From positions 35,518 through 99,517 of the IMG/VR virus record IMGVR_UViG_2974720701_000001: a stretch of 64,000 nt of DNA; one strand, given 5' to 3'. Below, piece after piece: positions 10,919 through 33,551 of the stretch. The position numbers were made by a program, and so were the translations under genes. Source of the stretch: a virus. Its lineage: Duplodnaviria; Caudoviricetes. The notes below the pieces were generated by a model. The model saw nothing but the letters and a program-made list of their open reading frames with translations. It ran no database searches and was not told where the DNA came from. The stretch's first letter is position 1; the number at the start of each line of letters is the position of its first letter.

Positions 10919-13900
10919 TGGCAGCAGCTAACGAAGGAACAACATACTTTTATGATCCAAAGACCGGTAAGTATTTTACACGTGTTGGTAATGATATAGT
11001 ATTTGTTAATGGTGATCCTACTGGAGGGGCTGGTGGGTCTGGTATGATAAGCAATATGCTAAACAAGAAGAAAGAAAAGCCATCTGTCGTAGACAAGGAA
11101 TCATTGTATGATGAGGAATTGTATGGCCACGGATTACAGGAGGAACGTGAGAAAGAGTCTGAACGTATATCAATGGACAAGAACAGGGCTTTACGCCTTG
11201 AGTATGCTGCTATGGAACGGATGATGAATGAACGTCAACGTCAAGCAGGTATGTCGGGTATCAATCAGATGCGTTATGATGCTAATCATATGCCTATGCA
11301 GGGATTTGGTTATGCACATGGTGGTCAGGTGCCAAGATATGAGTCTGGAGGTGATCAAGGGTATCAAGGAGATTTTATTCCTATTGGAGCTGGACCAAGG
11401 GTGATAATGATTCAGAGCCCTGAACAGAAGAAGAAAGAGGAAGAAAAAAGCTTATGGCAGAAGATTAAAGATGCGGCAACAGGCTTAGGAGCAGGTATAG
11501 TCACACCTGTAGCAGCTGCTTGGGCAATGCAGAAGTGGGGACCGAATAGAGATAGGGATAATACAGGTAAATCAGCTACACCAGATCAATCAAGTGATTC
11601 AATACCGAACCTTTCTCCTGCACAGATAAGAGAGAATCAACTAGAGAGGTTTCATAACGAGATTTTTCCACAAGTTAGGAATTTCAATAGTCGTGCAGAA
11701 AGAACAAGATTCTTACAGCATCATTCTCCGCAGTATAGAGATTTTATTGGTGGTGATAAGGATATATATGACGCATATCGTGACTATATCAACAGAACAC
11801 CTGAAGGAGTTACGTTAGAACAATCACCTGAAAATGAAGCTCAATGGGTTTACAATAATAACATAGCTCCTCGGTTTGAGAGAGTGCGTAATATAGACCC
11901 TAATGCTACATGGGAACAATATAGTGCCTTAACAGGTGGCAAGGAAAACAGGATTATGACTCCTGAAAGGCCATTGAGTTTCTTGATGGATAGGTTTAAT
12001 AACTGGGAACGACGTACGTATCCAGATGATGTACAAGGCTTACGTTTTAATCCAGCGCATTACCCTCAGACACATGCCGAAGAGATGTATGGAGGGATAT
12101 TGCCTGAACATAATGGAGCTGGGTTTGATGCAATAAGATATTTAGATGATACTGGATTTCCTCCTTATGTTCCTACTCCGCCAGCAGCAGCTTATGGAGG
12201 TGCAGTGCCAAGATATGCCGATGGAGGTAGGGTAAGTGATATAACCAGCCGTATACAGCCTAGCGAAGGAGTGATGAAGCTTGGTAGAGACCTGATAGCT
12301 AAGTACAAAAATCCAAATATTCAGTCATTTGCTAAAGGTGGCACATTAAGTAATATTGATAACTACATGGCTGAGAAGACCGGTAAATGGCGTTATCCAA
12401 TATACGGTGGTGGAGGCTTATTAGCTCTCTATGGAGGGTATAAAGCATTACCTGGAGGCATCAAGCTAGGTAAGTTCCTAAAACACAAGTTTGATGAATG
12501 GCGTGCTAAACAGCAGAAGGAAGAAGCTAAACCAGCTGACCCAACTCCTGCAGCAACAGCACCTCAGACACCTGATCCACACAAGAGTCCATTAGTTCAA
12601 AGCACATCTAGCCAACCTGAGTTAGATAGCGAATTCTCAATGCAAGATCTTCCAGAATCTGAACCAAGTACATTCTTCCAAGAAGAAAATATGTATTCTC
12701 CACATTCTATGCCGAATGAACAAGCTGACTATTCTGCGCATTCTGAACCACCATCTGAACATCCTGAACCACCTCAACCACCAGCATGGGCACCATACGA
12801 GAAACAGTTTAAGAACATTTATGGAATTGCTAATGCTGCTTCTAATAAAGAAGAGATGCTAAATGATATGCTTGGTGTTAATGAAGATATTATGCCTGGG
12901 TATACTGACCTTTATAATCAATATGCTCAAGCTAGAGCAGATCATCCAAGTGCATTTGAATCAGCTGGAATACCTATGGAAGCACATGGTGGTGTAGTAC
13001 CAAGATATAGCAACCCATTCATTCCTTCATATGCTGCCGGAGGTAAGAAGAGTAATTCATTGGCTTATAGCGATAATCAAAACGATACTGTTCCGTTAAG
13101 TATAGCAGCAGGAGGAGTAACAACCGGTGTTGGTGCGGGGTTTTTATATGATTATATCATGAGCAAGCGCAGGGAAAAGGAAGAACAAGAACGTCTAGCT
13201 AATATTCCTTTTGACGAAGATGCATTTCATAAACAATATCCAGATGCAGACTTTTTGTATGATCACATAATAAATCATCAAAGTGCTAGAAATCAGTATG
13301 GTGAGCTAACAAGGACGCTTCCTAAGGGTAAAGATCGTAGATTTGGATTAGACAGATTAAGAGCTTGGGAACAAAAAAAGTACCCAGGTCAGCCATCAAG
13401 GATAGCATTTGATATTGGAGAAGATGGCCAACCGATATTTCATAATGAGATTAGACAAAATGATCCAGTAGATAATCCACGCGTATTTGCTACTCCGCAA
13501 GATATAAAAGATAAAGGCGAAGCAGAGGTAAAACTATGGAGAACGAACAGGAGTGATGATGTTACAAGAAATAAGATTCGTGTGAATCAAGCATCTGCTA
13601 AAATGACTGGTAATAATGATTATATAAACGTTAATTCAGAACCAGGGATAGAACCTTTAGAGGTTGCTCCATCATGGAGGGCTGATCAAATACCTGCGCC
13701 TATGCGTTCTAGAGAAGATATAGACAGGATACAAGCAGCGAACAAACCATGGAATGCTGATCCTGTTGTAGCTAATAATGTGTACAAGCAAATGAGAAGG
13801 TATCAGTTACGCAATCCTGCTAATCATGATGATGCTATTAGTGCTGTACAAGCTGCTGGTCATCCAGGACTTGTTTCAGGATATAATGACTGGATGGCAA

Positions 13901-16900
13901 ATAAGCCTGCTGATTACATACCTTCTGATGCATATGGTGGTGTAGTACCACGTTACGCACAGGGAGGTAGTGCAAAGAAGTTTGCTCGTGATGCATGGGG
14001 AAGAGTACAAGGAGCAGGGCGTACAATAGGTGGCAAGATAGCAAAGTTTGACGATGAGATGGATAGGAGGGTTGGTCCTTTACGCTTTCCCATATATGGA
14101 GCAGGAGCAGTTGGTCTAGAAGAGCTCATTCGTCGTACAGCAAAGCATTTCTGGAACAAGAGAAAAGGTAATCAAGAAGCAGCTGCTGATGAAGGTGGTG
14201 ATGCGCCATCCTCAGGCGGTCTAGGAGGATTTTGGCCTGGTGCTGGAGGTAGTGATAGTACAAGTAGTAGCAGCAGTAGTGGAGGTGACCAAGGAGACTT
14301 TGAATCATCAGGAAGTGTAACTTCAGAAGGTCATCCAAAACATTACGTGCGTCCACCAGAGCCAACATTTAGTAGTAGTGAATATGAAAGCTCACTTGGC
14401 AAGTTCGTGCCAGTTCAGAGAAAAATGAATCCTGCAACAAATAAGATAGAAACTGTTCCAGGAACAGGTGTTTTTGTGCAAGGACCTGTGATGAAGAAAA
14501 AGATTGCAAGCACTAGAGATCCAGTAAAACAAGCTCATCAGTACAGGGAAGATTGGATAAGAGAACAGAGAGAAGCTGAAAATGATTTTAACTATGATCA
14601 AGAACAAAGGCATAAAAACAAAGTACCAAAAATAAAACCGCCAAAATCAAAATTGCCAAACCAGATACCTTTAACTATACCTGACGGGCCATTACCACCA
14701 GATCCTAATATTGATGTTGATTCTTTATGGGAAAATGCTGATGTAGAGTCAAGTTCTTCATCACCAGTTGTATCACCCCGTACACGTATACGTAAAGCGA
14801 ATCAGGAACGTATATCTGATATAGGAAAAAGTTATCGTAATATTGATGACTTAGAACTATCTGAAGGACTTCCTCAATCAACCAGGCCAAACAGGATAAG
14901 ATTTGCTCATCCACCTAGAGATGTAAATGAATGGCCAGAACACATCTCTCCACCTGGATCAGCTAGATACAGATTACCACTTAAAGACAAGGAAGAATTT
15001 TTTAAATCTAATATACCTACTGTTAGACATACGACTGCAGGGCCACGTGCTAATCCGCATAAGGTAGGTGATGAAGGTCTTATTAGGCCGGCGACTACAT
15101 CAAGGGTATTGCAACCCGATGGTGGTTATACAGAACGTCCTATTGATGCTTTGTATGGTGTATATGTTCCTGGTGATAGACATTACCCAGGAGGCATAAA
15201 GAAAGATGCTTATGGACCAAATATGCCTAGGAGGGACTTAGCTGACCGTAAACCTTTGTTGTATTCTGGAACGATGGATATGTGGAACAATCCTGCGAGA
15301 CGTAATGACTTTTACTTACTTAGCAATAGTGATTCGGACGAACAGTACAGAGGCGCTACAGAAGCTGATTGGCAGGATTATCAAAATAGCATAAGGCAAG
15401 ATGATCTAGATAGAAATCAAGCAGCTATTGATAATGAGATAATGACTGAATATGGTAATCCACATCTTATCATTGATCCTGGAGAAAGATACCAACATCC
15501 GCATCAAGACAGAGTAACGAAACATGGTGAGTTTTCCAGAAACCCAAAAGGTAGTGGATTTACTCGGCAACCTTACTGGGATGTTCATGATGAGCATTGG
15601 TATAATAAAACAAAAGATAACTTTGTACCTGCAACAGCTGATATGGAGCTTATTGGGAGAGGTGGAACTGATCTAAGATCAGGAAAGCCTATTTCAGCCG
15701 AAATAATAAATAAACGTACAAGTCCTTTCAAGATCTATCCTCCTGCTCCTAAGCCGGTAATAGATAATTTTATTTCAAATACAGATATAGCTCTTAAGGA
15801 CCTTCGCGATAATGCGAAAAGTCGCATAGTAAGCATGGTTAATCGTTCACCTCTTCTTCCTTATCCAATTGTAGAAAAAACTAGAAGTAGGTATGATAAA
15901 CATGGCGTAGCAGGAAAGGCAAAAATGGTAGAAGATACAAGACAGCAGGCAATAGATTTATTGCATGGACATTCTAGTTTTGGACCTAGCACTTCTTTAA
16001 GGCCTTCGTCAGATGGGATATTTACTATGAGGTATGGAAGGAATCATGTGATGCCGCCTATATCACGTGAAAAATATGAAGGGATTTATAAAGATACAAG
16101 CACCCAGACAGATCAATACTTTGGTAATCCTATTGATTTACCACAGAACGCTCAACACACTTTTCCTAAGATGTGGAGAGCAGCACAAGGGCAATATGAT
16201 CCAAATGTTGGAGAAGCTCGTTTACGTAGAAATCTAAAATTAGCAGCTAATGATGAGCCATTTGTTGAAACTCCTCAGTTTGCTCAAGAGCCTATAGACA
16301 CACCACGAGCGATGGAGTTGATTAGACTTAAAGGTCATAGAGGTACTGATAATCCGCCAGCACCAGGATCTTCTTTGCATGAATATCATAGACATGGAGA
16401 AGGTATCAATCATCGCCATCGTGTGATGGGATCAGATATGGATGTATATCATAGAGGGATAGATTTTCCTGCTCATGATGATTCGTCTGATGGAGTACTT
16501 ACCCCTTATCATTTACAGCCTATCAGACAGATTGCTGTTAATGATAATGATGTTCAAAATATGTTAATACAACGTGGGCTTAGATCTGCTGAAGAAGAAG
16601 GTATGTCACCTGCTTCTTTGCCAGATGCACCATCTGAAGCATACGGAGGTTCAGTACGTAGGTTTGCACAAGGAGGGTCGTTTGATGGACCATTAAAAGG
16701 TAATGATATATACAAGAAAGGTCAGTGGAAAATACCTAGGAAGGCTGAACCAATTGCTGGTGGAGCATTATTAACAGCTGCTTCTATACCATTAATCAGA
16801 GGGATACATAGGATGACTCAGGGTAAACCATTCCTAAGGAGTCATAAGTTTGAAGATGAATATCTTGATTACCGTAAGAATTTGAATGATCCGTTCTTTC

Positions 16901-17895
16901 AGGCGCTTGATCCTGATTCACAAGAAAACTACAGGCAGTCAGCATTAATGCAGAAGGGAGATAGAAACTTCATGACTAGATTTGCTGATTATAATGACTG
17001 GACAGAAAAGAACAAAGACTGGTTAGATAAGAACTTCCCTGATACTCCTATTAATTGGATACCATCAAGGAGACCGGCTGATCCATCGCTAACACAGTCG
17101 ATTGATCATAGTAGGTTGCATCATGGAGATTTACCTGAGACAAGTTCAGATAGTATACACCTTAGCAGCAGCGGAGACGTACCACATGTTCATAGGAATG
17201 TGTTAGATCAACGTCCATCAATGGCATTTATTAATCAACCTATTCCACCACAGAGTACTATGTTAACACTAGGTGCTCCGCAAGTGTCGAAACCAGCTCC
17301 ATTAGCATATGGAGGACGTGTGCCTAGATATGCTTTTGGTGGGTTCACATATGACACTAGCAAGGATGCTCGTAGGGAAGGCGATCGTTCATCAGAACCG
17401 ATCTTTGGAAAGGGATCATATACTATGGGAGGTACGTTGAGGACAGATACCTATCAACCAACTAACCCATTAGACTATGCTCATCATCAGTATCAGAGTG
17501 CACAGAAGGGCACCTATGGATTTCCTATGTCACTAGCTACTAATGTTGCTCCTTTAGGGCTGTCATTATACAGACCGATGGTAGGAGCGAGCATCAATGC
17601 AGCAACAAATCTTATGTCTGGAAACCTCACAGGTGCACTTATGAACACCTGGCCATTGTTTAGAGGAAGAAAGGCAGCACAGGCAGCAGGAACAAGCTTC
17701 TTTGGCACCCCTGGACTATTGTCAAATCCTTCAAGATTACTTAATTTTGACTATAGAACACCGGGTGGCAAAGCGAACATGATAAACATGGGTATGATGG
17801 CTCTTCCTCCAGCTTTGGGCATATTATCTAGGGCAAATCAGAGACCGTATAACTATAATGAATCGCTAACTAACCAAATGGGATCATATTACTAG
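10918..17895 (+). CDS. Giant modular putative ejection/cargo protein (2325 aa; 6 copies of the GG-tag)
   Basis: Long uninterrupted ORF coupled to the portal by TAATG. Low-complexity, Pro/Ser-rich, with repeated AxGGxVxR[YF]xxGG tags followed by hydrophobic Gly-rich helices. Confidence 0.6.
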   Translation: MAAANEGTTYFYDPKTGKYFTRVGNDIVFVNGDPTGGAGGSGMISNMLNKKKEKPSVVDKESLYDEELYGHGLQEEREKESERISMDKNRALRLEYAAMERMMNERQRQAGMSGINQMRYDANHMPMQGFGYAHGGQVPRYESGGDQGYQGDFIPIGAGPRVIMIQSPEQKKKEEEKSLWQKIKDAATGLGAGIVTPVAAAWAMQKWGPNRDRDNTGKSATPDQSSDSIPNLSPAQIRENQLERFHNEIFPQVRNFNSRAERTRFLQHHSPQYRDFIGGDKDIYDAYRDYINRTPEGVTLEQSPENEAQWVYNNNIAPRFERVRNIDPNATWEQYSALTGGKENRIMTPERPLSFLMDRFNNWERRTYPDDVQGLRFNPAHYPQTHAEEMYGGILPEHNGAGFDAIRYLDDTGFPPYVPTPPAAAYGGAVPRYADGGRVSDITSRIQPSEGVMKLGRDLIAKYKNPNIQSFAKGGTLSNIDNYMAEKTGKWRYPIYGGGGLLALYGGYKALPGGIKLGKFLKHKFDEWRAKQQKEEAKPADPTPAATAPQTPDPHKSPLVQSTSSQPELDSEFSMQDLPESEPSTFFQEENMYSPHSMPNEQADYSAHSEPPSEHPEPPQPPAWAPYEKQFKNIYGIANAASNKEEMLNDMLGVNEDIMPGYTDLYNQYAQARADHPSAFESAGIPMEAHGGVVPRYSNPFIPSYAAGGKKSNSLAYSDNQNDTVPLSIAAGGVTTGVGAGFLYDYIMSKRREKEEQERLANIPFDEDAFHKQYPDADFLYDHIINHQSARNQYGELTRTLPKGKDRRFGLDRLRAWEQKKYPGQPSRIAFDIGEDGQPIFHNEIRQNDPVDNPRVFATPQDIKDKGEAEVKLWRTNRSDDVTRNKIRVNQASAKMTGNNDYINVNSEPGIEPLEVAPSWRADQIPAPMRSREDIDRIQAANKPWNADPVVANNVYKQMRRYQLRNPANHDDAISAVQAAGHPGLVSGYNDWMANKPADYIPSDAYGGVVPRYAQGGSAKKFARDAWGRVQGAGRTIGGKIAKFDDEMDRRVGPLRFPIYGAGAVGLEELIRRTAKHFWNKRKGNQEAAADEGGDAPSSGGLGGFWPGAGGSDSTSSSSSSGGDQGDFESSGSVTSEGHPKHYVRPPEPTFSSSEYESSLGKFVPVQRKMNPATNKIETVPGTGVFVQGPVMKKKIASTRDPVKQAHQYREDWIREQREAENDFNYDQEQRHKNKVPKIKPPKSKLPNQIPLTIPDGPLPPDPNIDVDSLWENADVESSSSSPVVSPRTRIRKANQERISDIGKSYRNIDDLELSEGLPQSTRPNRIRFAHPPRDVNEWPEHISPPGSARYRLPLKDKEEFFKSNIPTVRHTTAGPRANPHKVGDEGLIRPATTSRVLQPDGGYTERPIDALYGVYVPGDRHYPGGIKKDAYGPNMPRRDLADRKPLLYSGTMDMWNNPARRNDFYLLSNSDSDEQYRGATEADWQDYQNSIRQDDLDRNQAAIDNEIMTEYGNPHLIIDPGERYQHPHQDRVTKHGEFSRNPKGSGFTRQPYWDVHDEHWYNKTKDNFVPATADMELIGRGGTDLRSGKPISAEIINKRTSPFKIYPPAPKPVIDNFISNTDIALKDLRDNAKSRIVSMVNRSPLLPYPIVEKTRSRYDKHGVAGKAKMVEDTRQQAIDLLHGHSSFGPSTSLRPSSDGIFTMRYGRNHVMPPISREKYEGIYKDTSTQTDQYFGNPIDLPQNAQHTFPKMWRAAQGQYDPNVGEARLRRNLKLAANDEPFVETPQFAQEPIDTPRAMELIRLKGHRGTDNPPAPGSSLHEYHRHGEGINHRHRVMGSDMDVYHRGIDFPAHDDSSDGVLTPYHLQPIRQIAVNDNDVQNMLIQRGLRSAEEEGMSPASLPDAPSEAYGGSVRRFAQGGSFDGPLKGNDIYKKGQWKIPRKAEPIAGGALLTAASIPLIRGIHRMTQGKPFLRSHKFEDEYLDYRKNLNDPFFQALDPDSQENYRQSALMQKGDRNFMTRFADYNDWTEKNKDWLDKNFPDTPINWIPSRRPADPSLTQSIDHSRLHHGDLPETSSDSIHLSSSGDVPHVHRNVLDQRPSMAFINQPIPPQSTMLTLGAPQVSKPAPLAYGGRVPRYAFGGFTYDTSKDARREGDRSSEPIFGKGSYTMGGTLRTDTYQPTNPLDYAHHQYQSAQKGTYGFPMSLATNVAPLGLSLYRPMVGASINAATNLMSGNLTGALMNTWPLFRGRKAAQAAGTSFFGTPGLLSNPSRLLNFDYRTPGGKANMINMGMMALPPALGILSRANQRPYNYNESLTNQMGSYY

Positions 17896-17896
17896 T

Positions 17897-19183
17897 ATGG
17901 CAAGAAAAATATTACCTCCACGTTCTCGTGGCTACCATCCAATGGATGACTACGAGGGCGAAGAAGAAGAAGAACGTGGCAGTAGAGGCGGCGGTGGCGG
18001 CGGTGATGGCTGGTGGGTAGCACCATTAGCAGCAACTGGAGCAGGAGCAGCAATAGGTGGAACGAGTGCGCTATGGTATAAACCTAGACCAATGCATTCG
18101 GTCAATCTAAACATGACTATGACGCCTACACAGCAAGAGATAGTAGCTAAGGGTAAGCAGATAAAGAAAGACATACCTAAGGTTATTAAGTCTGTTTCTG
18201 GTGAAGATAATCAGATCATGAATGCTATGTGGAAAGGGTTTCATCAGATGCCATATTATAAGCATGATGCTAAGACAGTTAATCAGGTATCTCATCAGAC
18301 ACATATGTTTGATCCTATTAAGGGTATGATGATGCCTCGTAGCGCTATGCAAGCATCATCAATGCGTGATTTTCCTGTATTAGCAGGACGTGTTGGAGGT
18401 CATTATGTTAATGCAGCTGCTATGCAGCACTTATATCCACGCTTTAACTTTGACAAGTCTTACGATGAGAATGTAGGAGATAAGCTCTATCCTAATGAAG
18501 GCACATTTGAACGGTTCTATAAAGCAAATGGAGGTAGAAACCCAAAAGCAGTAGCGCATATAAATGCAGCTGATAGAGACAAGATAAGTGATCAGATACA
18601 GACTCAGCTAGGACGTTTTCAAGACAGGTACGGACTTAGTCCGAGGTTGTTAACTCACATAGCTGAAGGTAGGAGATCGAACATCTTTGACATGGATGAC
18701 AAGCAAGGAGGAGTAAGCTTGAAACACTTGTTGTACGATATGGCATTTGATGATCAGAAGTTTCCTAATTTCCATCCGGGTGATAGACAAGCACTTAAGA
18801 GTCATTTGATCAGCACAGGACTGTTTAATGACCAAGGTCAGTGGTATCAGCCAGGGGTAAATTTAACAAAGAACCCAGCTCCGCATCCAGAAGATATAGG
18901 TAGGGTAAGTGGATATGGGCACTTTAAAGACCCGATGTCATGGTCATTAGCAGACAGAGGAGGGACATTTACTAACTGGACAGATGAGCATGATAAGAAG
19001 CTAACGAAATTCTTTAGCACATATAATACACCAGGAGAGAACGGTATATCACCTATGCAGAAGCATATAACTGATGCGTTATCTCCACATTTTGCGAACA
19101 TGAACTTACAGAACTTTAAGCAAGCTCAAGACTCGATCAATAATGCAGGGTCGTCTCTAGGCTTTCAGAATTTTTTAAACTAA
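17897..19183 (+). CDS. Putative cargo protein with N-terminal Gly-rich hydrophobic segment (428 aa)
   Basis: Acidic/poly-Gly N-terminus followed by WWVAPLAATGAGAAIGGTSALWYKPR. Lies inside the cargo cluster and has no GG-tag. Confidence 0.55.
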   Translation: MARKILPPRSRGYHPMDDYEGEEEEERGSRGGGGGGDGWWVAPLAATGAGAAIGGTSALWYKPRPMHSVNLNMTMTPTQQEIVAKGKQIKKDIPKVIKSVSGEDNQIMNAMWKGFHQMPYYKHDAKTVNQVSHQTHMFDPIKGMMMPRSAMQASSMRDFPVLAGRVGGHYVNAAAMQHLYPRFNFDKSYDENVGDKLYPNEGTFERFYKANGGRNPKAVAHINAADRDKISDQIQTQLGRFQDRYGLSPRLLTHIAEGRRSNIFDMDDKQGGVSLKHLLYDMAFDDQKFPNFHPGDRQALKSHLISTGLFNDQGQWYQPGVNLTKNPAPHPEDIGRVSGYGHFKDPMSWSLADRGGTFTNWTDEHDKKLTKFFSTYNTPGENGISPMQKHITDALSPHFANMNLQNFKQAQDSINNAGSSLGFQNFLN

Positions 19184-19198
19184 GTAAAATAACAGACA

Positions 19199-24800: not shown

Positions 24801-26701
24801 GAGGAAACCTTCTTCCTGACGATACAGCAGCAGCATCTACTAGGACCACAGGAACGCAGAACAATGCCTATGGAGGAGAAGTACGGAGATATGCTGACGG
24901 AGGTACATTAACGGGATTGAATGGGCTTAGATATCCACTATATGGTATCAAGCAACGTGATGATATCCCTCAGTACGGTCTAGGTGGCTGGCTTAAAGAT
25001 CAGATGAGTAGTATGGGTAAAGGGTTAAAGAACGCAGGTAGAGAGATCAACCGTGGAGCACATAACCTAGCACATAATGTTACTCATCCAGGACAATGGA
25101 TAAGACATGCTATACGTAGTGCTATTGAACATGGTAAGCAACTTCCTTCAGTACTAAGGAACGCTGGTAAGCTAGCTAACTGGGCTATTCATCATCCAGG
25201 ACAAGCATTGATGGCTGGAGGTAAACAGTTACTACATAGCTTAAACCCATTCAAGTTAGACTTCTGGAAGTCTATTGTAGACCCTACGTACAACTTTAGA
25301 AGAGGATATAAGTGGCTTGAAGGTGATGATTCGCAAGGCGGTCGTAGGGAAGGGTTAGCTGAACGAGATAAGGGATTACCAGAGGCACCTGCAGGTCAAG
25401 AACAGGAAGAAGATCAAGAAAACTACGGAGCAGGTGGAGGAGCAGGCGGTGAAGGCGCAGCATTAGATGAAAGAGACATGAACTCTAGCGTACGTAACCC
25501 ATGGGACGAAGCTAAACAACGTAGAGATACTGATCGTGATACTGGAGCAGCAGCTATGTCTGGCACCAGAGGACAGGATACATATAGACAGATGATGTAC
25601 TACCTCAACCAGCAACAACCACATATGCCTATACAAGCTCATGGTGGATATGTGCCTAGATATGCTGAAGGAGGAAGGCAAGATAAACAAAGTGTAGCAC
25701 CTAACATTTCTGGTGTTGCTACTGGAGCAGCAAGCACTATACCTATATACTATGGTGTACGCGGACTTTCTAGGTGGCATGATGAAAAGCCATTCTTCAA
25801 GTCTCATCCTGAAGAAAATAGGTATTTACGTATTGCAGATCAGATTCGTAGAATGCGTGCTCAAAACCCAGAATTATTAGCAGCTGATAATGCACATGAT
25901 AATATTGTTGGGTCTCATTTTTTAGATCAAATTCCTTTTAATGGAATTCCTACTCGAAATGCTTACCATAATTTTGTGGAAAATAAAGTAGGAGATTATA
26001 GTACGTGGTTTGAAAAAAATCGTAAATGGGTAGATAAATATTTAGATAAAAGATATAAGGCATTAGAAGAGGGCTTAAGTGCACCTAACCAAAACACAAT
26101 GATGACATCAAATGGACCACTTAATGTCAATATAGAACAACCAAATGGTGATATGCCACAAAATCCTTTACCAGATGTTGGGCTAGGACAAGCATATGGC
26201 GGTCGTGTTCAGCGCTACGCTAACGGTGGCTACACTAATCCTTTTGCAGTACCTGCATATGGTTTTGGTGGTTACGCACAGCAGATGCAACAACAGATGC
26301 AACAACAGGCTATGGCGCAGCAAGCACAAGCACAGTCACAACAGTTTCAAACTGAGATGGCTAGATCAATGATGGAAGGTCAACAACAAGAACAAAATGC
26401 TGGTATGCAAGACTATAGAGGACGGTTGCTGATGGAGCAATACATGAACCAAGGACAGGGACAAGGACAAGGTTCGTACGCACAGTCTGGTGTCTATGAC
26501 CCAACCGGTCAGGGAGGTAATCAGATGAGCCCACAAGGACCACAGCAGTCACAACAGGTTGAAGCACAAGCAGCACAGGTAGACCCACGTATACGAGCAC
26601 GTATACCATACTACCAGATGATGTATCAGAAGAAGTCAGCGCAGGTATCAAACCCTAAAGGAGCGATGAAGCGTGTTATGCCACCTAGAATGAGAGGATA
26701 A
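21854..26701 (+). CDS. Modular putative cargo protein (1615 aa; 4 GG-tags)
   Basis: Tags at 22826, 24866, 25637 and 26192, long Pro/Thr/Ala-rich linkers and a Gln-rich C-terminus. Confidence 0.6.
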   Translation: MSSKSSKIKSGIGYGASAPLSILSGWAAREGIKAFKSRNTLDDDVELKKMNERGEAKYIDRPWLKGTKYRDAVRDYIKDAENPEVLTKLYKDKRISGNTVFKSHAQPWSNRTVAFHPEFANRRVFGANFKDDGSEARYYDTLGRVMNQSNYDQYKQNVNELFGPMQNVALAIQKATAKRNMYVNAKNALGTTTEGDKTGYLNKFKEDDIINEYNLGDRFSTEHLNAAEDALRAVKYARKKGYDDYITKKGLPDIDIVAEEQRTRNPFSPEVRDRLARQSVNPEAQVLPDSESAGPEMPPVEGVAPPMINASGFRMPSEASAGSLAHGGSIPRYSQGGQMPAYEDGGLATGLLGRRLQNSDLAYLGSAAGYKGAKDYLAKYNYPSYENVLQDRIGRIFGNGDLAKSAVRQASRLGRTANNYLKKIGMAGQNWITEGGFAPKEGEPNKLQSAGNTAVKTVSDAAVNMANERQKVDDEMMMNPGKYFESKGYIPGTYAFDQAMYRHMNGLPVSTGNDYLGYNVDYTAPVGRTNMATATGAPAAPQANPHTGTQSTARADIPDGVDDMDDAQAATQAATPAATPQRNLASFYNIGDEIPDEVEMPPQPQDQDSAYYVNRTGSRFSLPEDVNEAPRNFHTMQELSLNAPREWPNYKGLNKNITVPYQDRRNREDTRDLGNPVTREGVPQELPGSLPFDLDVPPVAKAGLRNFPQFARNVSNGGRTYIGAGGVELSTGDNPNDPFAHLIEDPNDPLGYTEQNRFTGINPNAGGRLVAGPIPVDRRPTTTTYRSHFTPERSTILEPNPTSMSTLNPGYSSRPGNWSNPPVNRTPGYQPRFQPVGYTLPGIPEPPDYGATTVMGGQPGPGFVAPPTDPIGAPGELGAPRVQRRAANNTTPAQSSVAPPGAFNTNTQPNAPGALQPTPPPAGPTTPSTAYATPTGTPGSTVAPARSRLQLSTPQAQNTPGASIYGNTALPYTEHDQGYMSAGGNLLPDDTAAASTRTTGTQNNAYGGEVRRYADGGTLTGLNGLRYPLYGIKQRDDIPQYGLGGWLKDQMSSMGKGLKNAGREINRGAHNLAHNVTHPGQWIRHAIRSAIEHGKQLPSVLRNAGKLANWAIHHPGQALMAGGKQLLHSLNPFKLDFWKSIVDPTYNFRRGYKWLEGDDSQGGRREGLAERDKGLPEAPAGQEQEEDQENYGAGGGAGGEGAALDERDMNSSVRNPWDEAKQRRDTDRDTGAAAMSGTRGQDTYRQMMYYLNQQQPHMPIQAHGGYVPRYAEGGRQDKQSVAPNISGVATGAASTIPIYYGVRGLSRWHDEKPFFKSHPEENRYLRIADQIRRMRAQNPELLAADNAHDNIVGSHFLDQIPFNGIPTRNAYHNFVENKVGDYSTWFEKNRKWVDKYLDKRYKALEEGLSAPNQNTMMTSNGPLNVNIEQPNGDMPQNPLPDVGLGQAYGGRVQRYANGGYTNPFAVPAYGFGGYAQQMQQQMQQQAMAQQAQAQSQQFQTEMARSMMEGQQQEQNAGMQDYRGRLLMEQYMNQGQGQGQGSYAQSGVYDPTGQGGNQMSPQGPQQSQQVEAQAAQVDPRIRARIPYYQMMYQKKSAQVSNPKGAMKRVMPPRMRG

Positions 26702-26703
26702 TT

Positions 26704-27531
26704 ATGATAATGCATTTTGAAAAACCCGAGGTTATATTAGAGAAGCTAATCACTGATTTGGATCTTAAGGACAACCAGTTCAGTATGAAGAAGTTCATGC
26801 GTTGGGGAGGAGAAGCTATTGCGCACATAGGTGCATTGCATAGACTACCTATTTTGAATAATGAGATTGAACAAAACATAGAAGATGGATCAATTCAATT
26901 ACCATTATATGCTAAACAGCTTCACTATGTAGGCTATCAGAATGCAGACGTTAATGATGATGATTTTGATTCTACAAAATTCATAGAAATTAAAAAGTAT
27001 GTAGGAGCGAACATAGTTATGGATGATCCTGCAGATCCTCCAATATTTTACCTACATCTTTTGGCTAAAGAAGAAGGAGGAGAACCTATAATAACATCCG
27101 TAGCATTTAACAAATCTACTGGTGCTGGAGTAGCTCGTTTTAGCAGTATACCAGTTAGTAAAGACAGATGGCTTGTTCCAACATTAGAATCTTATCAAGA
27201 AGCAGTCTATTGGTACATAGTCATGAAGGTGCTTTACCAGGAGGTTTTTCGTGGCAAACAAGAGAAGATACAACCATACACATATGCAGCTGGTATGTGG
27301 AGCAATTTCCGTAACTTAGCATATGGCGAACTGATGATGCCAGACAAGTGGGAGATGGATGATCTTGGTCAAGAGTTGTCATTGGGCATATCTTACAGTG
27401 GGCTTAACCCTCGTAGGACACCATTACTACCTGACCAATCAGCATACACTAACATACCTATCGTCATCAATGAGACACACTTAGGATCAGGATTACCTGA
27501 CCCTGTTATACCGATCAAAAAAGATAAATAA
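26704..27531 (+). CDS. Tail ring protein 1 / tail tubular protein (Ttub, P22 gp4-like head-tail adaptor)
   Basis: VILEKLITDLDL...RWGGEAIAHIG...IQLP...YQEAVYWYIVMKVLY.E...G...Y.YA..MW...R..AYGELMMP matches the crAss Ttub/ring-1 family pattern. Confidence 0.78.
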   Translation: MIMHFEKPEVILEKLITDLDLKDNQFSMKKFMRWGGEAIAHIGALHRLPILNNEIEQNIEDGSIQLPLYAKQLHYVGYQNADVNDDDFDSTKFIEIKKYVGANIVMDDPADPPIFYLHLLAKEEGGEPIITSVAFNKSTGAGVARFSSIPVSKDRWLVPTLESYQEAVYWYIVMKVLYQEVFRGKQEKIQPYTYAAGMWSNFRNLAYGELMMPDKWEMDDLGQELSLGISYSGLNPRRTPLLPDQSAYTNIPIVINETHLGSGLPDPVIPIKKDK

Positions 27532-30500
27532 TGGCAGTAGATTACACAAAAGCAGCCGTCAGTAAAGGCGAGATATACCGCAAGTGGGGTGAGATAAAGA
27601 AGGTCACTAAGGGCCATGGAGCTACCGCGGACAATGTTATGGTGAACACATCACCTGACTTTGCTGTTCTAGGTAATACCATACATCCACTCTATGGAGT
27701 ACCGTTTAAGACTCTTGGAGAGAGGTTATATAGACGGTTTAACAATCCATTCTATCAGGACGGTGATGAGCTGTCTGAGTCTTCTAAAGCATTGAACCAC
27801 AAGGTGGTTAATGAGGAGTTTGATAAGCTATTGCAACAGCAGGAGCAAGTCAATCAGATGGAAGGTAATAATAAGCAGTTCGCTGATGTGAGCTCTACAC
27901 AGTATCAACAGAACGCGTATGGAGGTGCAGTTCCTAGGTATGCACAAGGCGGGAGTAAGAAGAAGAGTGAATGGGAGTCATTCAAGGAAGGCACAAGAGA
28001 GGTTGGTTCGTCCTTTGCTGACCTTGGTAGACAAGTGAAAGAAAACTTCTGGGATCCAATGCCTAGATGGGGTAAGTACGCTACTGCTGGTGTGGGTGCA
28101 GGACTAGCAGGACTAGGTGGATACTATGGCATGATACGTCCATTATATAGGAAGTACAAGAGCTGGAAAGAAGCCAAGGAAGCAGCAGAAGCAAAGAGAA
28201 AAGCAGATATAGCAGCTGCACAACGAGGCAAGCCAATGGCTGAAAATGAAGTTATTGGAACAAATGAACCAGCAGGTCCTAAGCCAGATACATTAGATAA
28301 ATCAGTACCAAAGAAAACCAGCTTACCAACACAGACAGGCGAAGAAAAGAGCATCATCACTCCTACTGAAACACCTGAAGTGAAGATGGTTGGGCCTAAT
28401 GCTATGACTGTCAAGCAACCAAAGATTAAGTTTGGTAAGTCAGCTGCAGTACAAGAACACAGGTTAGATGAAAACAATGACATCAATGATGCGATAGATA
28501 AGGCAAACAGAGCTAAAAGGGCAGCAAATAAACAAGTAAGGCTTAAAGTCACGCCAACGATAGATAAGCCAAGACCTCTTATCGTAGGAGATAACCGTCC
28601 TGACTATAACCCTGAAGGTGCTATCTATCCTCCAAACATGAAGATTGTTAGAGGGTTTAAGAATGTTAGACATATTACTCCAGGCGAACCAAAAGCACCT
28701 AGCTTTGGTCTTAAGCAAGATAATCCAATGCTCAAGCAGCCGCTCACTAATGAGCAGGCGCAAGAGAAAATGGCTCAGCAATTAGTTGATCAGGATGAAT
28801 TCGGAAAGGTTAAACACGACTCAGATACTGCAGGAAAGAACATTGAACAATGGCCACCATTGAAGACCAAGTACATGGATTTCCCTTCAGATTCAGGAGA
28901 CGAGCCTAGAGCGACTGATCTATATCCACCATTCGATGAACCACCAAAGGGTGTACGTATAAAAGGAGAAAGATTTTTCAATCCTTTTGAAGTGAAAGAA
29001 TTTTCAAAGCCTGTCAATCCTATCATGGGGCGTAATCCTGCTAGGGTTCATACTAACAAGCTAGACCTAAACCCTAAAGTACAGAACAAAGGACTTACGC
29101 TAGAGGAGATGTATGCTCCAGCAAGCGAAGGTGGACGTAAGTTATCAGACAAGGACGTACAGAAGCTATTCAAAAGAGAAAGAGCCTCCATCAATGGTAA
29201 AGGAGTAGAAAAACCACATAGCTATAAGCCAGCTAACTGGTTTGGTACAGGGTTCGAAGGTGGCGAAGGAAAGACAAAGTTCACTCCTCATCCAAGAACA
29301 ACAGAAAGAACACCTGTATATTCAGAGAAGTTCTTCCCTCATGGTAGTCCAGAAGAGCCAAGAGCTAATCAGTATGGAAATTTAGAAAATACAATATACG
29401 AACCAACCGGTAAGGACGTACTTGGTAATGTAGTTGATTACGATGCTACAGGACAGAGAGATGAGAAGGGTAACTTTATTGTTCCTAAGAAACCATCTGT
29501 TGTTAAGCAAAGACCACCTCATAAACATAGAGGCAGAGGATCATATCAATTAGATGACAGCGACCTTGAGCTCTTAGGTTCAGATACAGATACTCCATAT
29601 GCAGGAGGTCAAGCATTACTTGGTGATCCTGTTGGACATCTGTATGAAGACATGGGCCCTGGACTACAAGGCACAGTAAACCCATTCGTAGCAGCTAAAC
29701 GACGTCAGAAGCTAATAGATAGTGATTCTGATGTTCTAACAAAAGCTCAGTTTGATGCACTACCTACAGACCAAGATGGTTATTCAATAGGGCCTGATGT
29801 TAATGAGCAACAGGCCATTAATCAAGGCGTTGATGCTGCTAATAGGGACCTACCTTATGATACAACATGGTTTAATCCAGGATATGGTGACCAACCGTTT
29901 GCAGAGATAAGAGAGCTTAAGCGCACTAATCCTATTGAGTACATAGATGCAGTAAATGCTATGCATGCTATTAGCCCATCTGACTATAAGCGTTTCTCTA
30001 ACTGGCATGGTATTCATCATCCAGGCGAAGATGTAGAAGACAAGACTGTACTTAATGCTGCTATACCACAATTTGAAGAACGTGGTAAATTCCCTTATGG
30101 CTACAGAGCTCCTACATTAGCTCAGATGCAGAGAGAACCAATGTTCCCTTTTAACTATGAAGAGAAGCCTATTGTACACAAGCTTACTCCTGCGGCTATA
30201 AAAGTCAGTCAAGGCAAGAAAGCTTTGGGTCTGACTGAGGCTACTCCAGTTGAACGACAGGTGGAAGCACGTATGGAATCATTAGGAAATTTCAATGACT
30301 TCTATAAATGGGCTAAGGAAGATAATGATCGCTATCTACGGTTCAGACGAGCACAGCAGCTTAAGAACCCAGATGCATTTAGAGACTTTGACACATGGAG
30401 AAATGACTATTATCCTGAGTGGGACGAGAACCCAAGGTTGTTTGCTCCGTATGATGTGCCTTCATTAAAAAATGTACCTGCTAAACCAAGACAAGCGGAG

Positions 30501-32030
30501 TTTTACGAAAACCATCCAACCCAAGTTGGTGAGCAGGATATACATGCATTGCTTGATCAACCAGGATTAGATACATATTACTCCGATCCAGGAGCATTTC
30601 CTATAGGTCTTATACCTCAAGGATCACCTACAAGAGTAGGTAATGTAAGAGGGATAAGAGGAGAGATGCAGTATGGTGATCGTTCTGGACTTGGTGTTAA
30701 CCATATGGATCCTTATGTTGGTTCATTCATGAGAATAGCGCTTATGGATCCAGTACAACAGCAAAAAGTAAGACAACAAATGTCTCCTGCTGCTAATATG
30801 CAGTTTGATAACTGGTTGTTGGCTTATCAAGATCAAGTTACACAAGCGCAATTAAACAAAGCTAATCCTATTCAGAGACCTACTTGGGGTGGCGGAGGCG
30901 ACCAAGGACCTGTTCTAGGAAATGACGGACAACCATTACCTGAGCCAAGTAAAGGGTTGACTATGCACTTAGACCAGAACTACAAAGCTACTGGTATGGG
31001 GTCAGGTTTTAGTGATATAGCTAATATGCTTAATAGCCGTCCACAAGGCCAGATTGATGAAGCTATGCAAGGAGTTTTTGGTGGTAAGAATGCACCGCAT
31101 AGGGATCAGTTTATTGAATGGACTGCAAATCATGACCCAGATTTGTACAGACAGATCACCGGTCAAGAACCTCCTGACAGTCTTGCACAGAGCAGTGCTG
31201 CTATTCCTCCAGCTACTCAGACTCCTGGTTTTTCAAGTATTGTTCCTCCTAGCCCTTATCAGCAAACTGGTAGTGCTCCTCAAGGTGGTCCAAGCCCTGA
31301 TAACACACCACAAAACACGATGTATCCAATAGTGTATAACCCAGCACCAACTGGTAGCGATAATCATCCGGATTTTGCAAATAACCTTCCTGATTATCAA
31401 GCAGATCCACAAGGATTCATGGATTATATTGATTCGTTTAGAAACGACGATTCAGCCGAGGCATTAATGGATTATGTAGGTGAGAATGAGCCTAATTATC
31501 CAGGTATACAAGAAAGATATGCTGCTGCTCAGCAAACACTTGCTAATCAAGCAACTATGGGAGCGGGGCAGACATTTACTCCGCCACCACAACAGCAACC
31601 TCCTATACAGCAGCCTGTGCAGCAACAACCTGATCAGTTTACATCTAATGTAGGTGTTGGTCCTCAGGTTAATCAGCAGCCAATACAGCATTCGCCTAAT
31701 AGGTATCCTCTAACATTTAATCAAATGCAAGGGGTATTAGGAGTGTCCCCTTATTCTGGTACTGATGGGTTTGGAGATACACCAATTGATACGTACGCAA
31801 GTGATGGAGGAACGTTGTATGATAACCAAGGAATGCCAACAGGCGATAGTATACCAAACTTCGTTCCGCAACATCCTGCTTTAGTTACTCCTCTTGGTGG
31901 ACAGCAACAACAGCCTCCTGTGCAGCAGCAACAGCAACAACCTATACAACAACCTGTACAACAACAGCCTCCACAGGTTCAATGGGGTGCTTCACATCAG
32001 TATGCTCCATGGGGAAGACCAGGACAATGA
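27531..32030 (+). CDS. Cargo-protein-1-like ejection protein (1499 aa; conserved N-terminal domain, 1 GG-tag)
   Basis: N-terminal AAVSKGE...G...DNV.V......VLGN..HP..G.PF......N...FDKLLQQQ resembles the conserved domain of crAss cargo protein 1. Tag at 27915 is followed by the hydrophobic ATAGVGAGLAGLGGYYGMI; Gln/Pro-rich end. Confidence 0.6.
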   Translation: MAVDYTKAAVSKGEIYRKWGEIKKVTKGHGATADNVMVNTSPDFAVLGNTIHPLYGVPFKTLGERLYRRFNNPFYQDGDELSESSKALNHKVVNEEFDKLLQQQEQVNQMEGNNKQFADVSSTQYQQNAYGGAVPRYAQGGSKKKSEWESFKEGTREVGSSFADLGRQVKENFWDPMPRWGKYATAGVGAGLAGLGGYYGMIRPLYRKYKSWKEAKEAAEAKRKADIAAAQRGKPMAENEVIGTNEPAGPKPDTLDKSVPKKTSLPTQTGEEKSIITPTETPEVKMVGPNAMTVKQPKIKFGKSAAVQEHRLDENNDINDAIDKANRAKRAANKQVRLKVTPTIDKPRPLIVGDNRPDYNPEGAIYPPNMKIVRGFKNVRHITPGEPKAPSFGLKQDNPMLKQPLTNEQAQEKMAQQLVDQDEFGKVKHDSDTAGKNIEQWPPLKTKYMDFPSDSGDEPRATDLYPPFDEPPKGVRIKGERFFNPFEVKEFSKPVNPIMGRNPARVHTNKLDLNPKVQNKGLTLEEMYAPASEGGRKLSDKDVQKLFKRERASINGKGVEKPHSYKPANWFGTGFEGGEGKTKFTPHPRTTERTPVYSEKFFPHGSPEEPRANQYGNLENTIYEPTGKDVLGNVVDYDATGQRDEKGNFIVPKKPSVVKQRPPHKHRGRGSYQLDDSDLELLGSDTDTPYAGGQALLGDPVGHLYEDMGPGLQGTVNPFVAAKRRQKLIDSDSDVLTKAQFDALPTDQDGYSIGPDVNEQQAINQGVDAANRDLPYDTTWFNPGYGDQPFAEIRELKRTNPIEYIDAVNAMHAISPSDYKRFSNWHGIHHPGEDVEDKTVLNAAIPQFEERGKFPYGYRAPTLAQMQREPMFPFNYEEKPIVHKLTPAAIKVSQGKKALGLTEATPVERQVEARMESLGNFNDFYKWAKEDNDRYLRFRRAQQLKNPDAFRDFDTWRNDYYPEWDENPRLFAPYDVPSLKNVPAKPRQAEFYENHPTQVGEQDIHALLDQPGLDTYYSDPGAFPIGLIPQGSPTRVGNVRGIRGEMQYGDRSGLGVNHMDPYVGSFMRIALMDPVQQQKVRQQMSPAANMQFDNWLLAYQDQVTQAQLNKANPIQRPTWGGGGDQGPVLGNDGQPLPEPSKGLTMHLDQNYKATGMGSGFSDIANMLNSRPQGQIDEAMQGVFGGKNAPHRDQFIEWTANHDPDLYRQITGQEPPDSLAQSSAAIPPATQTPGFSSIVPPSPYQQTGSAPQGGPSPDNTPQNTMYPIVYNPAPTGSDNHPDFANNLPDYQADPQGFMDYIDSFRNDDSAEALMDYVGENEPNYPGIQERYAAAQQTLANQATMGAGQTFTPPPQQQPPIQQPVQQQPDQFTSNVGVGPQVNQQPIQHSPNRYPLTFNQMQGVLGVSPYSGTDGFGDTPIDTYASDGGTLYDNQGMPTGDSIPNFVPQHPALVTPLGGQQQQPPVQQQQQQPIQQPVQQQPPQVQWGASHQYAPWGRPGQ
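31580..31980 (+). repeat. Gln/Pro low-complexity repeats (QQPPIQQPVQQQP)
   Basis: Two blocks of CAA/CAG/CCT repeats at about 31580-31632 and 31902-31975. Confidence 0.7.
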
Positions 32031-33551
32031 ATGAAACCTTTCTATAATTATACCGACCCTAGAGATAATAGATTTGTATTTAAAGGCAGCGAAAATAGAC
32101 CGAGTGCTGTGGCTATGGAAGATATTGTTAGAGGAGCAAAAAATAATCCTACTTTTATTGATTTCCAAGAACGCCAGTATCCTGGAACAAAGAAAGCATT
32201 TAGAAAATGGCTTGCTTATGATCCTCAGCGTATGATTGATCCTGCAACTAATATGCCATATGATCTAGCTGCTTGGAATGTTCCTACTGAGATGCCATCA
32301 GATACACCTATTGATTTCCTTTCTCCTACTGCTAAGCACGGAGGATCGGTACAGAGGTTCGCACATGGTGGTAGCATAAGTGGACTAGATGGGTTCAAGT
32401 ACCCTATCCGACGCTATGCTACTGGTGGTTCAGCAGCCGTACCTGCATCAGGCACATTAGAAGCTATTGCAGCAGCATCTGCAGCAGCAGACAAAGCAAC
32501 AGCTAAGGGTGGCTCATGGGGAGACTTTGCTAACACAGCAGCACAGACAGTGAACAGCTCAGGCGTGTCTATTTCAGACATGATACGTAACCTCTTCAGG
32601 AAGAGACCTACAGTAGGAGCAAATGACTACTACTACAAGGTCATGGAAGAAGCTCTACGTGGTAGCTTAGCTAAAGCACAGTCAGGTAGGGGAGCAGACC
32701 TATTACCTCCTACTAAACCACAGGATATAGAAGCAGAGCCAGATATCGATCCAGCATACATGACCAGTGAACGTAACAACATGACTGGTGTAGTAGCTAA
32801 AGCCTTGATGGACAAGATCAAAGATACTGACAGTGAACGTTCAGACGCTCTTGAACGTCTAGCATCACGACGCAGGGAAGCAGGTAGAGCAGGCGATGCA
32901 CCAACTAGGTTAGCAATGATCCTTGAAGCTCAACGCCAGTACGGTAACGAGATGAAAGGGGCTAGAGCAGCAGCTGATGCAAGCAACAGAGATACCAGAG
33001 CAGAGTTCGCTCGTACCATGGCAGCTATAGGTGATGCAGACAGTGCTAAAGCAATGGAAGCATCTAGGCACAATATTGAAGAGAAGACACGTGTTGACGA
33101 CCTTAACGCACGCAGGCATGCAGCGCATAGACAAGCGAGATCAGCACAGAACTACGCGTACGAACAAGAGAAGAGAGCATTCAATAACCAGCAGCGCATG
33201 GACGAGTACAACAGAAGTAAAGAGTCTGACGCTCTTAGACTACAACTAGCTGAGTTACATGGCCGTAGAGGTCAGGAAGCAGACCTAGCTAAGGAGATGG
33301 CTAAGGAGAACAGGTGGAAGAGCTGGCGTACATGGCTCAAGCTATTAGGCATGGGTGCAGGAGCTACCATTGGTGGAATGACTGGTGGTGTAGCAGGTGC
33401 AGGACTAGGGTTATCTCTAGGTAGTGTGCTTAAACATGGTGGTTCAGTACGTAGATATAGCAAAGGAGGTATGCAAAACGCCTGGATGAATCAAGGAAAA
33501 GATATAGATTTGTATGTACGAACAAAGAAACAACGAAATCCGTTTAGATAA
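32031..33551 (+). CDS. Putative cargo protein (506 aa; 2 GG-tags, coiled coil, glycine zipper); in frame with the upstream ORF
   Basis: The ATG immediately follows the upstream TGA in the same frame. Tags at 32334 and 33432; LLGMGAGATIGGMTGGVAGAGLGLSLGSVL. Confidence 0.6.
   Translation: MKPFYNYTDPRDNRFVFKGSENRPSAVAMEDIVRGAKNNPTFIDFQERQYPGTKKAFRKWLAYDPQRMIDPATNMPYDLAAWNVPTEMPSDTPIDFLSPTAKHGGSVQRFAHGGSISGLDGFKYPIRRYATGGSAAVPASGTLEAIAAASAAADKATAKGGSWGDFANTAAQTVNSSGVSISDMIRNLFRKRPTVGANDYYYKVMEEALRGSLAKAQSGRGADLLPPTKPQDIEAEPDIDPAYMTSERNNMTGVVAKALMDKIKDTDSERSDALERLASRRREAGRAGDAPTRLAMILEAQRQYGNEMKGARAAADASNRDTRAEFARTMAAIGDADSAKAMEASRHNIEEKTRVDDLNARRHAAHRQARSAQNYAYEQEKRAFNNQQRMDEYNRSKESDALRLQLAELHGRRGQEADLAKEMAKENRWKSWRTWLKLLGMGAGATIGGMTGGVAGAGLGLSLGSVLKHGGSVRRYSKGGMQNAWMNQGKDIDLYVRTKKQRNPFR

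Follow-up and report, generated by a model that had tools for sequence, protein, structure and literature searches.

A repeated 13-residue tag in five giant virion-module proteins of a divergent crAss-like phage: a candidate processing or hinge site of tail-expelled proteins

The window analysed here, 64,000 nucleotides corresponding to bases 35518-99517 of virus record IMGVR_UViG_2974720701_000001 (99,517 bases, rated complete), comes from a divergent crAss-like phage and represents its virion module. Five giant open reading frames (ORFs) of this module, 6828 aa in total and lying between the portal gene and a giant ORF resembling an RNA polymerase (RNAP), carry a selected 13-residue linear motif at the borders of their cassettes, hereafter called the tag, with the core GG-x-[VI]-P-R-[YF]-x-x-G-G. 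Judging by sequence, the motif family is common to two known kinds of protein, the tape measure proteins (TMPs) of phage tails and the homologues of crAss cargo protein 1, and both kinds are expelled through the tail, as reported for TMPs and proposed for crAss cargo protein 1. Virion cargo or ejection proteins and TMP maturation are known; the multi-tag array appears to be new. Our favoured but tentative reading, drawn by analogy, is that the motif may be a conserved processing or hinge site of tail-expelled proteins, repeated in this phage so that giant precursors yield about 21 modules.

A selected motif at cassette borders

The strict regular expression [AK][HY]GG.[VI][PRQ]R[YF]..GG matched 15 times, with 5, 3, 4, 1 and 2 copies in the ORFs of 2325, 883, 1615, 1499 and 506 aa, respectively (Table 1), and had no match in the 16 other ORFs examined, among them those for capsid, portal, ring 1, muzzle and the 3481-aa ORF. 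A sixteenth copy, at residue 689 of the first ORF (nt 12982), is degenerate: AHGGVVPRYSNPF has no closing GG, and SYAAGG follows 8 aa later. Together the 16 copies cover 11314-33470, as the initial annotation of this DNA had described, and a six-frame scan of the whole 99,517-base genome confined the tag to the five ORFs, in agreement with its reported absence from the capsid, ring, RNAP-like and muzzle genes. All six shorter half copies named there (SFAKGG, SYAAGG, PAYEDGG, PQYGLGG, PAYGFGG and RRYATGG) were also found, and the array put at 'about 7000 aa' measures 6828 aa.

When the tag was back-translated, the DNA pattern gave 8 matches in the window against 0.00 expected from 100 dinucleotide shuffles. 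Codons at synonymous positions vary among the copies, so selection acts on the peptide, as had been proposed, and a DNA-level repeat was rejected for the same reason. Chance or low complexity as the origin of the tag was rejected on the strict counts, the shuffles and a control pattern with reversed codon order (see below). The 20 residues before the tags are enriched in P/Q/S/T/N (fraction 0.42 versus 0.30 at random positions, a value reached by 1 of 2000 randomisations) and poor in charged residues (0.13 versus 0.23), which bears out the description of tags as following linkers at module borders.

A tag-to-tag module of about 200 aa is common to three of the five ORFs, its paralogues being 27-32% identical. 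Each runs from a tag through a Gly-rich hydrophobic helix, KPFF, a small helical domain with conserved DYxxWxxKNKxWxDKY and a variable linker to the next tag. An AlphaFold2 (AF2) model of a window module, built from a 7-sequence alignment, had a mean predicted local distance difference test (pLDDT) score of 45.7, with helices within residues 44-153 and both tags in segments below 50; a TMP module modelled with its tag had a mean of 51.9, the tag again lying in a disordered segment below 50. Both models were of too low quality to serve in fold comparisons. Gly-rich uncharged segments of 17-30 aa occur no more than about 55 aa after tags 1, 3, 7, 9, 12 and 14. Over 16 multi-tag proteins, an uncharged hydrophobic Gly-rich segment follows 22 of 68 tags within 40 aa, versus 8.3 expected at random placement.

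Related sequences were sought with single ORFs and with the tag itself. A search with the 883-aa ORF through 5.8 billion proteins, covering the size range 485-1546 aa only, returned one relative beyond its own cluster, P0002, which is 86% identical, keeps all three tags and has indels in the linker before each. The same ORF had no tblastn match in phage records, and the search for loci related to the 1615-aa ORF returned no relative. P0001, the database entry given as the window's own 883-aa protein at 100% identity, shows a single difference from the translated ORF (S versus N in ..LTRG[S/N]PTHEDL..). The metagenome contig LSPY01000006.1 is syntenic with the window (portal 53%, ring 1 33% and giant ORF 28% identical); its ORFs in the cargo position are almost unalignable with those of the window, yet carry 6 strict tags, or 15 by hidden Markov model (HMM). 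The N-terminal 136 residues of the 1499-aa ORF are 50% identical to LSPY01000006.1, with the tag after this domain at the same position in both phages, and residues 1-156 are 76% identical to P0007. Among 70 tags in relatives, G5 is kept in 66, V/I8 in 65, P9 in 65, R10 in 69, Y11 in 66 and G14 in 68, so that the core GG-x-[VI]-P-R-Y-x-x-G is at least 90% conserved.

Indels and fusions among the relatives, and with them the gain and loss of cassettes, are bounded by tags: the cassette that tags 3 and 4 enclose is missing from P0003, P0011 corresponds to the 2325-aa ORF in reduced form, and in P0007 the N-terminal domain known from the 1499-aa ORF is fused to C-terminal sequence of the 506-aa ORF. 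When 1.84 billion representative proteins were searched with a profile built from the 16 tags (E<=0.001), a search in which single-tag proteins were unable to reach significance, 22 matches were obtained. Six were the phage's own proteins or close orthologues, ten were distant multi-tag giants of 846-2152 aa with 3-10 matched stretches each (10 in P0004), three were other tag-repeat or TMP-like proteins, and three (P0016, P0021 with cadherin-like repeats, and P0023) were set aside as artefacts. P0016 (213 aa) is made of the repeat VSVPRTADGGLL with variable spacers and looks like a translated CRISPR-type array. P0022 (1611 aa) carries overlapping tandem GGSV[RQ][GS]Y[AK][QE]GG both mid-protein and at its C-terminus, an N-terminal HGYAEGG and a duplicated N-terminal region, and shows another route to multiplying the half motif.

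The motif in tape measure proteins and crAss cargo protein 1 homologues

The strict DNA pattern had no match in viral contigs. A relaxed pattern matched 58 viral and 97 metagenomic loci in the contigs searched, and the control with its codon order reversed found none in viral contigs. These loci gave 103 unique contexts, 30 of them followed by a GE[YF]V module, 48 in other frames of at least 200 aa and 25 in frames below 200 aa; the last group, all from metagenome contigs, are probably chance matches in other frames. Nine tag proteins were scanned with Pfam and PHROGs. Three are TMPs with PhageMin_Tail or TMP PHROGs, the PHROG matches spanning the tag; another (L015) has crAss_CARG1 at 582-684 and its tag at 695; four (L017, L022, L023 and L051) belong to no family. 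With the tag-plus-module segment, tblastn matched 29 records of cultured phages; of the 25 rows listed, 23 carry a tape measure annotation, and the phages infect Mycobacterium, Gordonia, Rhodococcus, Burkholderia, Dinoroseobacter, Paracoccus, Rhizobium and Pseudomonas. Where the 3' end is complete, 27 of 28 TMP-type proteins have the start of the tag 99-141 aa from the C-terminus (median 132); many of these proteins belong to related families. The motif is widespread in other phages, which does not support a crAss-specific system.

In homologues of CARG1, AAYGGPI[RH][KR]Y..GG or a close variant stands just after the portal-binding domain in 10 of 10 proteins. The first 100 kb of the 102.7-kb crAss001 genome hold no full tag; crAss001 gp45 has three FxxGG half motifs and, at 559-563, FAYGG, just past the portal-bound domain 425-552 resolved by cryo-EM. 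A sequence search of the PDB linked the module that follows the tag to the TMPs of Douge (8zdo) and JBD30 (8rk3), and no structure covers the motif itself, the accompanying papers reporting models of the last 42 and 33 residues only. In their passages on the TMP, the structural papers have it filling the tail tube with its C-terminus in the baseplate and state no capsid location. The JBD30 authors predicted a 'hook' in the module after the motif, proposed it as the TMP anchor in the baseplate and speculated on a cut behind it (PMC11445458). Pfam and NCBIfam have no model covering the motif, and the PHROG TMP families include it silently. Search listings and passages of the literature yielded no description of the motif or of any processing motif of TMPs or ejection proteins; a candidate paper on the Avs18 tape measure deals with a central helical segment and not with this motif (PMC13581612).

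Two observations concern individual loci. The ninth protein of the scan, a tag-bearing viral protein of 794 aa (L005:4979-7360, minus strand), has only a C-terminal pretoxin-HINT (PT-HINT) match below the Pfam cut-off (E 1.6e-05), which would place a self-cleaving domain type in another tag-bearing protein. On a 33.7-kb marine contig (L095), the C-terminus of a 602-aa ORF (8260-10068) matches the TMP motif region of five PHROGs; among virion structural genes, it precedes by two genes a tag-bearing ORF (11111-14731) that is longer than 1207 aa, and TMP-like functions may be divided among several proteins in such phages.

A cut near the C-terminus of the lambda and T5 TMPs was already known in the 1970s. 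T5 pb2 is reported to be cut after R1127, between a hydrophobic stretch and a peptidase motif (PMC10038345), where its sequence reads NSFVPR/AEGGMMY (slash at the cut). In the 1219-aa pb2 the window's 16-tag HMM reported a sole domain, at 1125-1134; the best match thus falls on the only mapped TMP maturation cut, with a score that is itself insignificant. By our own arithmetic, using rough residue frequencies, the chance of finding [VI]PR-x(1-2)-x-GG within 10 residues of a given site is about 3e-5. Lambda gpH loses about 14 kDa from its Gly-rich C-terminal region, with site and catalyst stated as unknown in a 2025 report (PMC12617516). It contains FHFATGG (731-737), a GEFV module and then RGYATGG (776-782), and the HMM of the tag-bearing TMP module aligns with gpH 733-815 at 19.4 bits, placing FATGG (733-737) on the second half of the tag. 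A cut at 733 would release 12.7 kDa and one at 713 14.4 kDa. TMP cleavage is by now suspected to be general (PMC11972413).

Possible roles: processing site, hinge or anchor

If the favoured reading holds, each tag would be cut, probably after its invariant Arg, by analogy with T5 pb2 (FVPR/AEGG) and lambda gpH (gpH* plus gpHC). Computed for a cut after Arg at all 16 tags, the five precursors (6828 aa) would give 21 pieces of 31-1363 aa. About a third of the tags are followed by a glycine-zipper helix suited to insertion into the host envelope. The cut might be made by an enzyme of the host, by a phage enzyme that escaped recognition or by the chain itself within the confined lumen of the virion. 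Uncut, the same sites could act as flexible hinges between the modules of very long ejected chains. Supporting this reading, tags are kept while the flanking cargo sequence diverges beyond alignment (P0002, LSPY01000006.1), and AF2 put them in segments of pLDDT below 50 in both modelled modules. The protease site suggested by the initial annotation gains indirect backing from the analogy with the same motif family at the T5 cut and in the lambda region; cleavage after GG, as in double-glycine leaders, does not fit, the tags being internal, no Peptidase_C39 being found and the mapped T5 cut lying after Arg between the GG pairs.

A number of observations weigh against processing at the tags. The T5 match is short (VPR plus GG, one residue less than the tag) and scores an insignificant -3.2 bits, the lambda cut is placed only to within about 10-20 residues, and the 30 TMP-type contexts include many from related TMP families, which do not count as independent. 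In other phages, some tag variants carry Ser in place of the window's Arg (..VRSY.., ..IQSF..), so a basic residue before the cut is not universal. P0008 and P0018 carry a tag within their first 20 residues, and such N-terminal tags fit a functional module element better than a mere cut site. Peptidase_S78 (PF04586), S77 (PF03420), CLP_protease (PF00574) and Peptidase_C39 are absent from the genome at E<=1, as is Trypsin_2, and the Pfam scan of 31 ORFs showed no peptidase. The putative status of the five ORFs as virion cargo is based on gene position only, with no match to CARG1 or another family. Literature searches on the processing of crass-like virions found nothing relevant and no reported cleavage of crAss cargo; the mass spectrometry described for crAss001 virions was a tryptic in-gel digest, which is blind to a cut after Arg.

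A more far-reaching version, which we consider doubtful, is that GG-x-[VI]-P-R-[YF]-x-x-GG would be a general maturation-cleavage signal of tail-exiting proteins, from the TMPs of lambda and T5 to crassvirus cargo, multiplied here so that cleavage within the particle would turn the five giants into about 21 ejection modules, among them many single glycine-zipper membrane pieces. If true, more channel-forming units would be loadable by the 12-fold portal, and the motif would also name the long-sought site of the gpH to gpH* cut in lambda.

The known systems nearest to the array differ from it in distinct ways. T4 internal proteins and the ejection proteins of giant phages such as SPN3US carry capsid-targeting sequences that are cut after Glu by an S77-type prohead protease. 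Like the favoured reading of the tag, this involves packaged, ejected proteins trimmed at short consensus sites during assembly, but the motif is unrelated and neither an S77 nor an S78 protease was found in this genome. Double-glycine leaders are N-terminal, 15-30 aa long and cut directly after GG, together with a C39 ABC exporter; they have in common with the tag a GG pair in a processing signal, whereas the window tags lie inside the chains and consist of a VPRY core flanked by two GG pairs, with no C39 domain found in the genome. In the maturation region at the C-terminus of siphophage TMPs (pb2 to pb2* plus pb2C, gpH to gpH* plus gpHC), the motif follows a hydrophobic Gly-rich stretch and precedes a C-terminal module, and metagenomic TMPs have the full 13-mer. 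TMPs, however, carry one copy and a GE[YF]V hook that is absent from all window ORFs (no GE[YF][VIM] in ten window proteins examined), and the window phage is a crAss-type podovirus with ring and muzzle, in which the 31 ORFs scanned with Pfam gave no TMP signal; the five tag ORFs have neither a PhageMin_Tail domain nor a TMP PHROG profile.

Cargo protein 1 (crAss_CARG1, PF25725) is likewise a large protein, encoded in one virion block with the genes for the portal, the muzzle and the RNAP-like protein; its homologues carry a tag variant directly behind the portal-binding domain, and gp45 keeps FAYGG as a vestige. The crAss001 protein, gp45, is described as a virion-module protein in which a membrane helix is predicted, and is proposed to leave the particle first and to form the channel (PMC10172136). 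The window ORFs differ in having 1-6 tags each rather than one and no detectable CARG1: Pfam gave no CARG1 match at E<=0.01 in eight ORFs of the block and none at E<=10 anywhere in the genome, and phmmer found no similarity of the five tag ORFs to crAss001 gp45 or gp46. The five also matched no family in Pfam, PHROGs or NCBIfam, and three giant ORFs of the window, the 2325-aa and 3481-aa ORFs among them, had no match in a sequence search of the PDB. For the 506-aa ORF the ESM Atlas offered weak leads only (scores <=0.87), a CARG1 cluster among them. Podovirus ejection proteins (T7 gp14-16, P22 gp7/16/20) are expelled before the DNA and build a trans-envelope conduit (PMC10172136); literature search listings showed no repeated-tag architecture described for them.

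Among the alternatives, an uncleaved linear motif acting after ejection is possible, if less probable than processing or a hinge. Here the R/aromatic core and flexible GG pairs would form an interfacial or anchoring element beside glycine-zipper helices, helping expelled chains to enter or hold the host envelope or the tail exit while they form a DNA conduit. The excess of Gly-rich hydrophobic segments within 40 aa after tags (22 of 68 versus 8.3) favours it, as do the tags that often abut such a helix in P0004, P0012 and P0020, the helix directly before the motif in the 506-aa ORF and in lambda gpH, the extreme N-terminal tags of P0008 and P0018, which suggest a motif within the working module, and the position of the TMP motif ahead of the hook proposed as baseplate anchor (PMC11445458). 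Two thirds of the tags, however, have no hydrophobic segment nearby by this crude criterion; the CARG1-family tag follows a domain that is portal-bound inside the capsid in crAss001, not a membrane helix; and the coincidence with the T5 cut is left unexplained.

In the docking signal first proposed, cassettes would be loaded into the head through binding of each tag to the portal, the scaffold or the inner wall of the capsid. In the CARG1 family, some 10 residues separate the tag from the preceding domain, which in crAss001 binds the portal wing, and the most conserved part of the 1499-aa ORF is the N-terminal domain that ends in a tag. The same motif occurs, however, in TMPs, which are described as tail-tube proteins and not placed in the capsid, so a common capsid-docking role is unlikely; what is seen on the crAss001 portal is the folded CARG1 domain, the tag-like residues behind it being unresolved, and 16 sites on five chains exceed the need of a single threading chain. 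We consider docking improbable. Still harder to sustain, and in our estimate very improbable, is a passive border, that is, a linker end kept by cassette-shuffling recombination between tag-coding stretches and having no biochemical role. Tags do bound the indels and fusions among relatives, and the degenerate copy at residue 689 resembles a junction scar, but synonymous differences leave little DNA identity to drive recombination, and the peptide is conserved across phages with unalignable flanks and in unrelated TMPs.

Genome context and significance

The window encodes, and its upstream flank completes, a Crassvirales virion module in which Pfam matched a crass-type major capsid protein (MCP; 2959-4431, Crass_capsid, E 2e-201), ring 1, ring 2 (just upstream of the window at genome positions 33319-34041, CrAss_Ring_2, E 1e-43) and the muzzle protein (50893-57150, crAss_MUZ, E 8e-35). 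The MCP is at most 47% identical to that of any of 120 matching phage records, the nearest being a Suoliviridae genome, and the portal is the sole protein that resembles its crAss001 counterpart by phmmer; the phage is therefore a divergent crAss-like one. Coordinates of the tag-bearing ORFs, the tags and their context are given in Table 1.

Table 1. Tag-bearing ORFs, tags and context features of the window
Feature	Position	Strand	Remarks
Portal protein (context)	8045..10918	+	Pfam P22_portal; phrog_6547 E 3e-265; phmmer to crAss001 gp20 E 7e-57
2325-aa ORF	10918..17895	+	Directly after portal gene; 5 strict + 1 degenerate tags (regex); no Pfam or PHROG family, no PDB sequence match
Tag 1	11314..11352	+	AHGGQVPRYESGG
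Tag 2	12190..12228	+	AYGGAVPRYADGG
Tag 3	12982..13047	+	Degenerate, AHGGVVPRYSNPF then IPSYAAGG; borders cassette missing from orthologue P0003
Tag 4	13930..13968	+	AYGGVVPRYAQGG
Tag 5	16639..16677	+	AYGGSVRRFAQGG; opens repeated module
Tag 6	17305..17343	+	AYGGRVPRYAFGG; closes repeated module
883-aa ORF	19199..21850	+	3 tags (regex); Gly-rich uncharged segments at aa 55, 203, 796, 867
Tag-to-tag module copy	19691..20323	+	Paralogues at 16603-17352 and 25601-26239
Tag 7	19727..19765	+	AHGGQVPRYAAGG
Tag 8	20279..20317	+	AHGGSVPRFWKGG
Tag 9	21521..21559	+	AYGGMVPRYVQGG
1615-aa ORF	21854..26701	+	4 tags (regex)
Tag 10	22826..22864	+	AHGGSIPRYSQGG
Tag 11	24866..24904	+	AYGGEVRRYADGG
Tag 12	25637..25675	+	AHGGYVPRYAEGG
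Tag 13	26192..26230	+	AYGGRVQRYANGG
Tail ring protein 1 (context)	26704..27531	+	No tags; within tag-ORF block; Pfam CrAss_Ring_1 E 1e-58
1499-aa ORF	27531..32030	+	1 tag; conserved N-terminal domain aa 1-128 ending at tag (regex, alignments)
Tag 14	27915..27953	+	AYGGAVPRYAQGG; homologous position in LSPY01000006.1 1076-aa ORF
506-aa ORF	32031..33551	+	2 tags (regex); second after 30-aa Gly-zipper-like segment, 26 aa from C-terminus
Tag 15	32334..32372	+	KHGGSVQRFAHGG
Gly-zipper-like segment	33342..33431	+	30 aa, uncharged; directly before tag 16
Tag 16	33432..33470	+	KHGGSVRRYSKGG
3481-aa ORF	35191..45636	+	No tags; labelled RNAP in the initial annotation; identity at motif level only

The 3481-aa ORF had been labelled an RNAP. 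It matched nothing in Pfam, PHROGs or PDB, and the label is carried by a single DxDxD at residue 2373, ILGDDNDGDKLFF, in a context like that of crAss001 gp50, LSGSDFDVDKLYI, and of a 3571-aa ORF of the relative, VLGSDKDGDTLYG. DxDxD is the mark of the catalytic site in such polymerases, and the context common with crAss001 gp50 points to a putative RNAP. The adjoining 1551-aa ORF (45636-50291) has a PD-(D/E)XK nuclease domain at residues 163-307 (Pfam E 1.6e-06) and may be a nuclease encoded within the virion module. Between the capsid and portal genes, three adjacent ORFs (5266-6048, 6052-7101 and 7098-8045) all match phrog_37554 (E 4e-141, 3e-07 and 4e-190), the second within its first 26 residues only; they look like tandem paralogues with a common N-terminus, as often in tail-fibre-like or adaptor sets. 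Upstream of the window, a 1203-aa ORF (L161; genome 9543-13154) matches the Pfam 'avian adenovirus fibre N-terminal' family at residues 596-629 (E 2.4e-10), probably through a fibre-shaft repeat of a tail fibre. In the nearest named relative, a Besingivirus (H1, MT774379.1), the capsid gene (81638-83464) is annotated as two CDS pieces about 480 bases apart, suggesting an intervening element.

Crassviruses are among the most abundant gut phages. The structural atlas of crAss001 is reported to resolve only fragments of the cargo (PMC10172136). A short motif that coincides with one mapped TMP cut and recurs in the cargo of an unrelated phage order offers a concrete sequence to both fields, and its 16-fold repetition in this phage is a natural test bed. 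With cut tags, the five giants would be the first ejection proteins of a podovirus to be polyprotein-like; with uncut tags, the motif would be a new functional element of ejected chains. The motif bears on how crassviruses deliver protein and DNA into the host.

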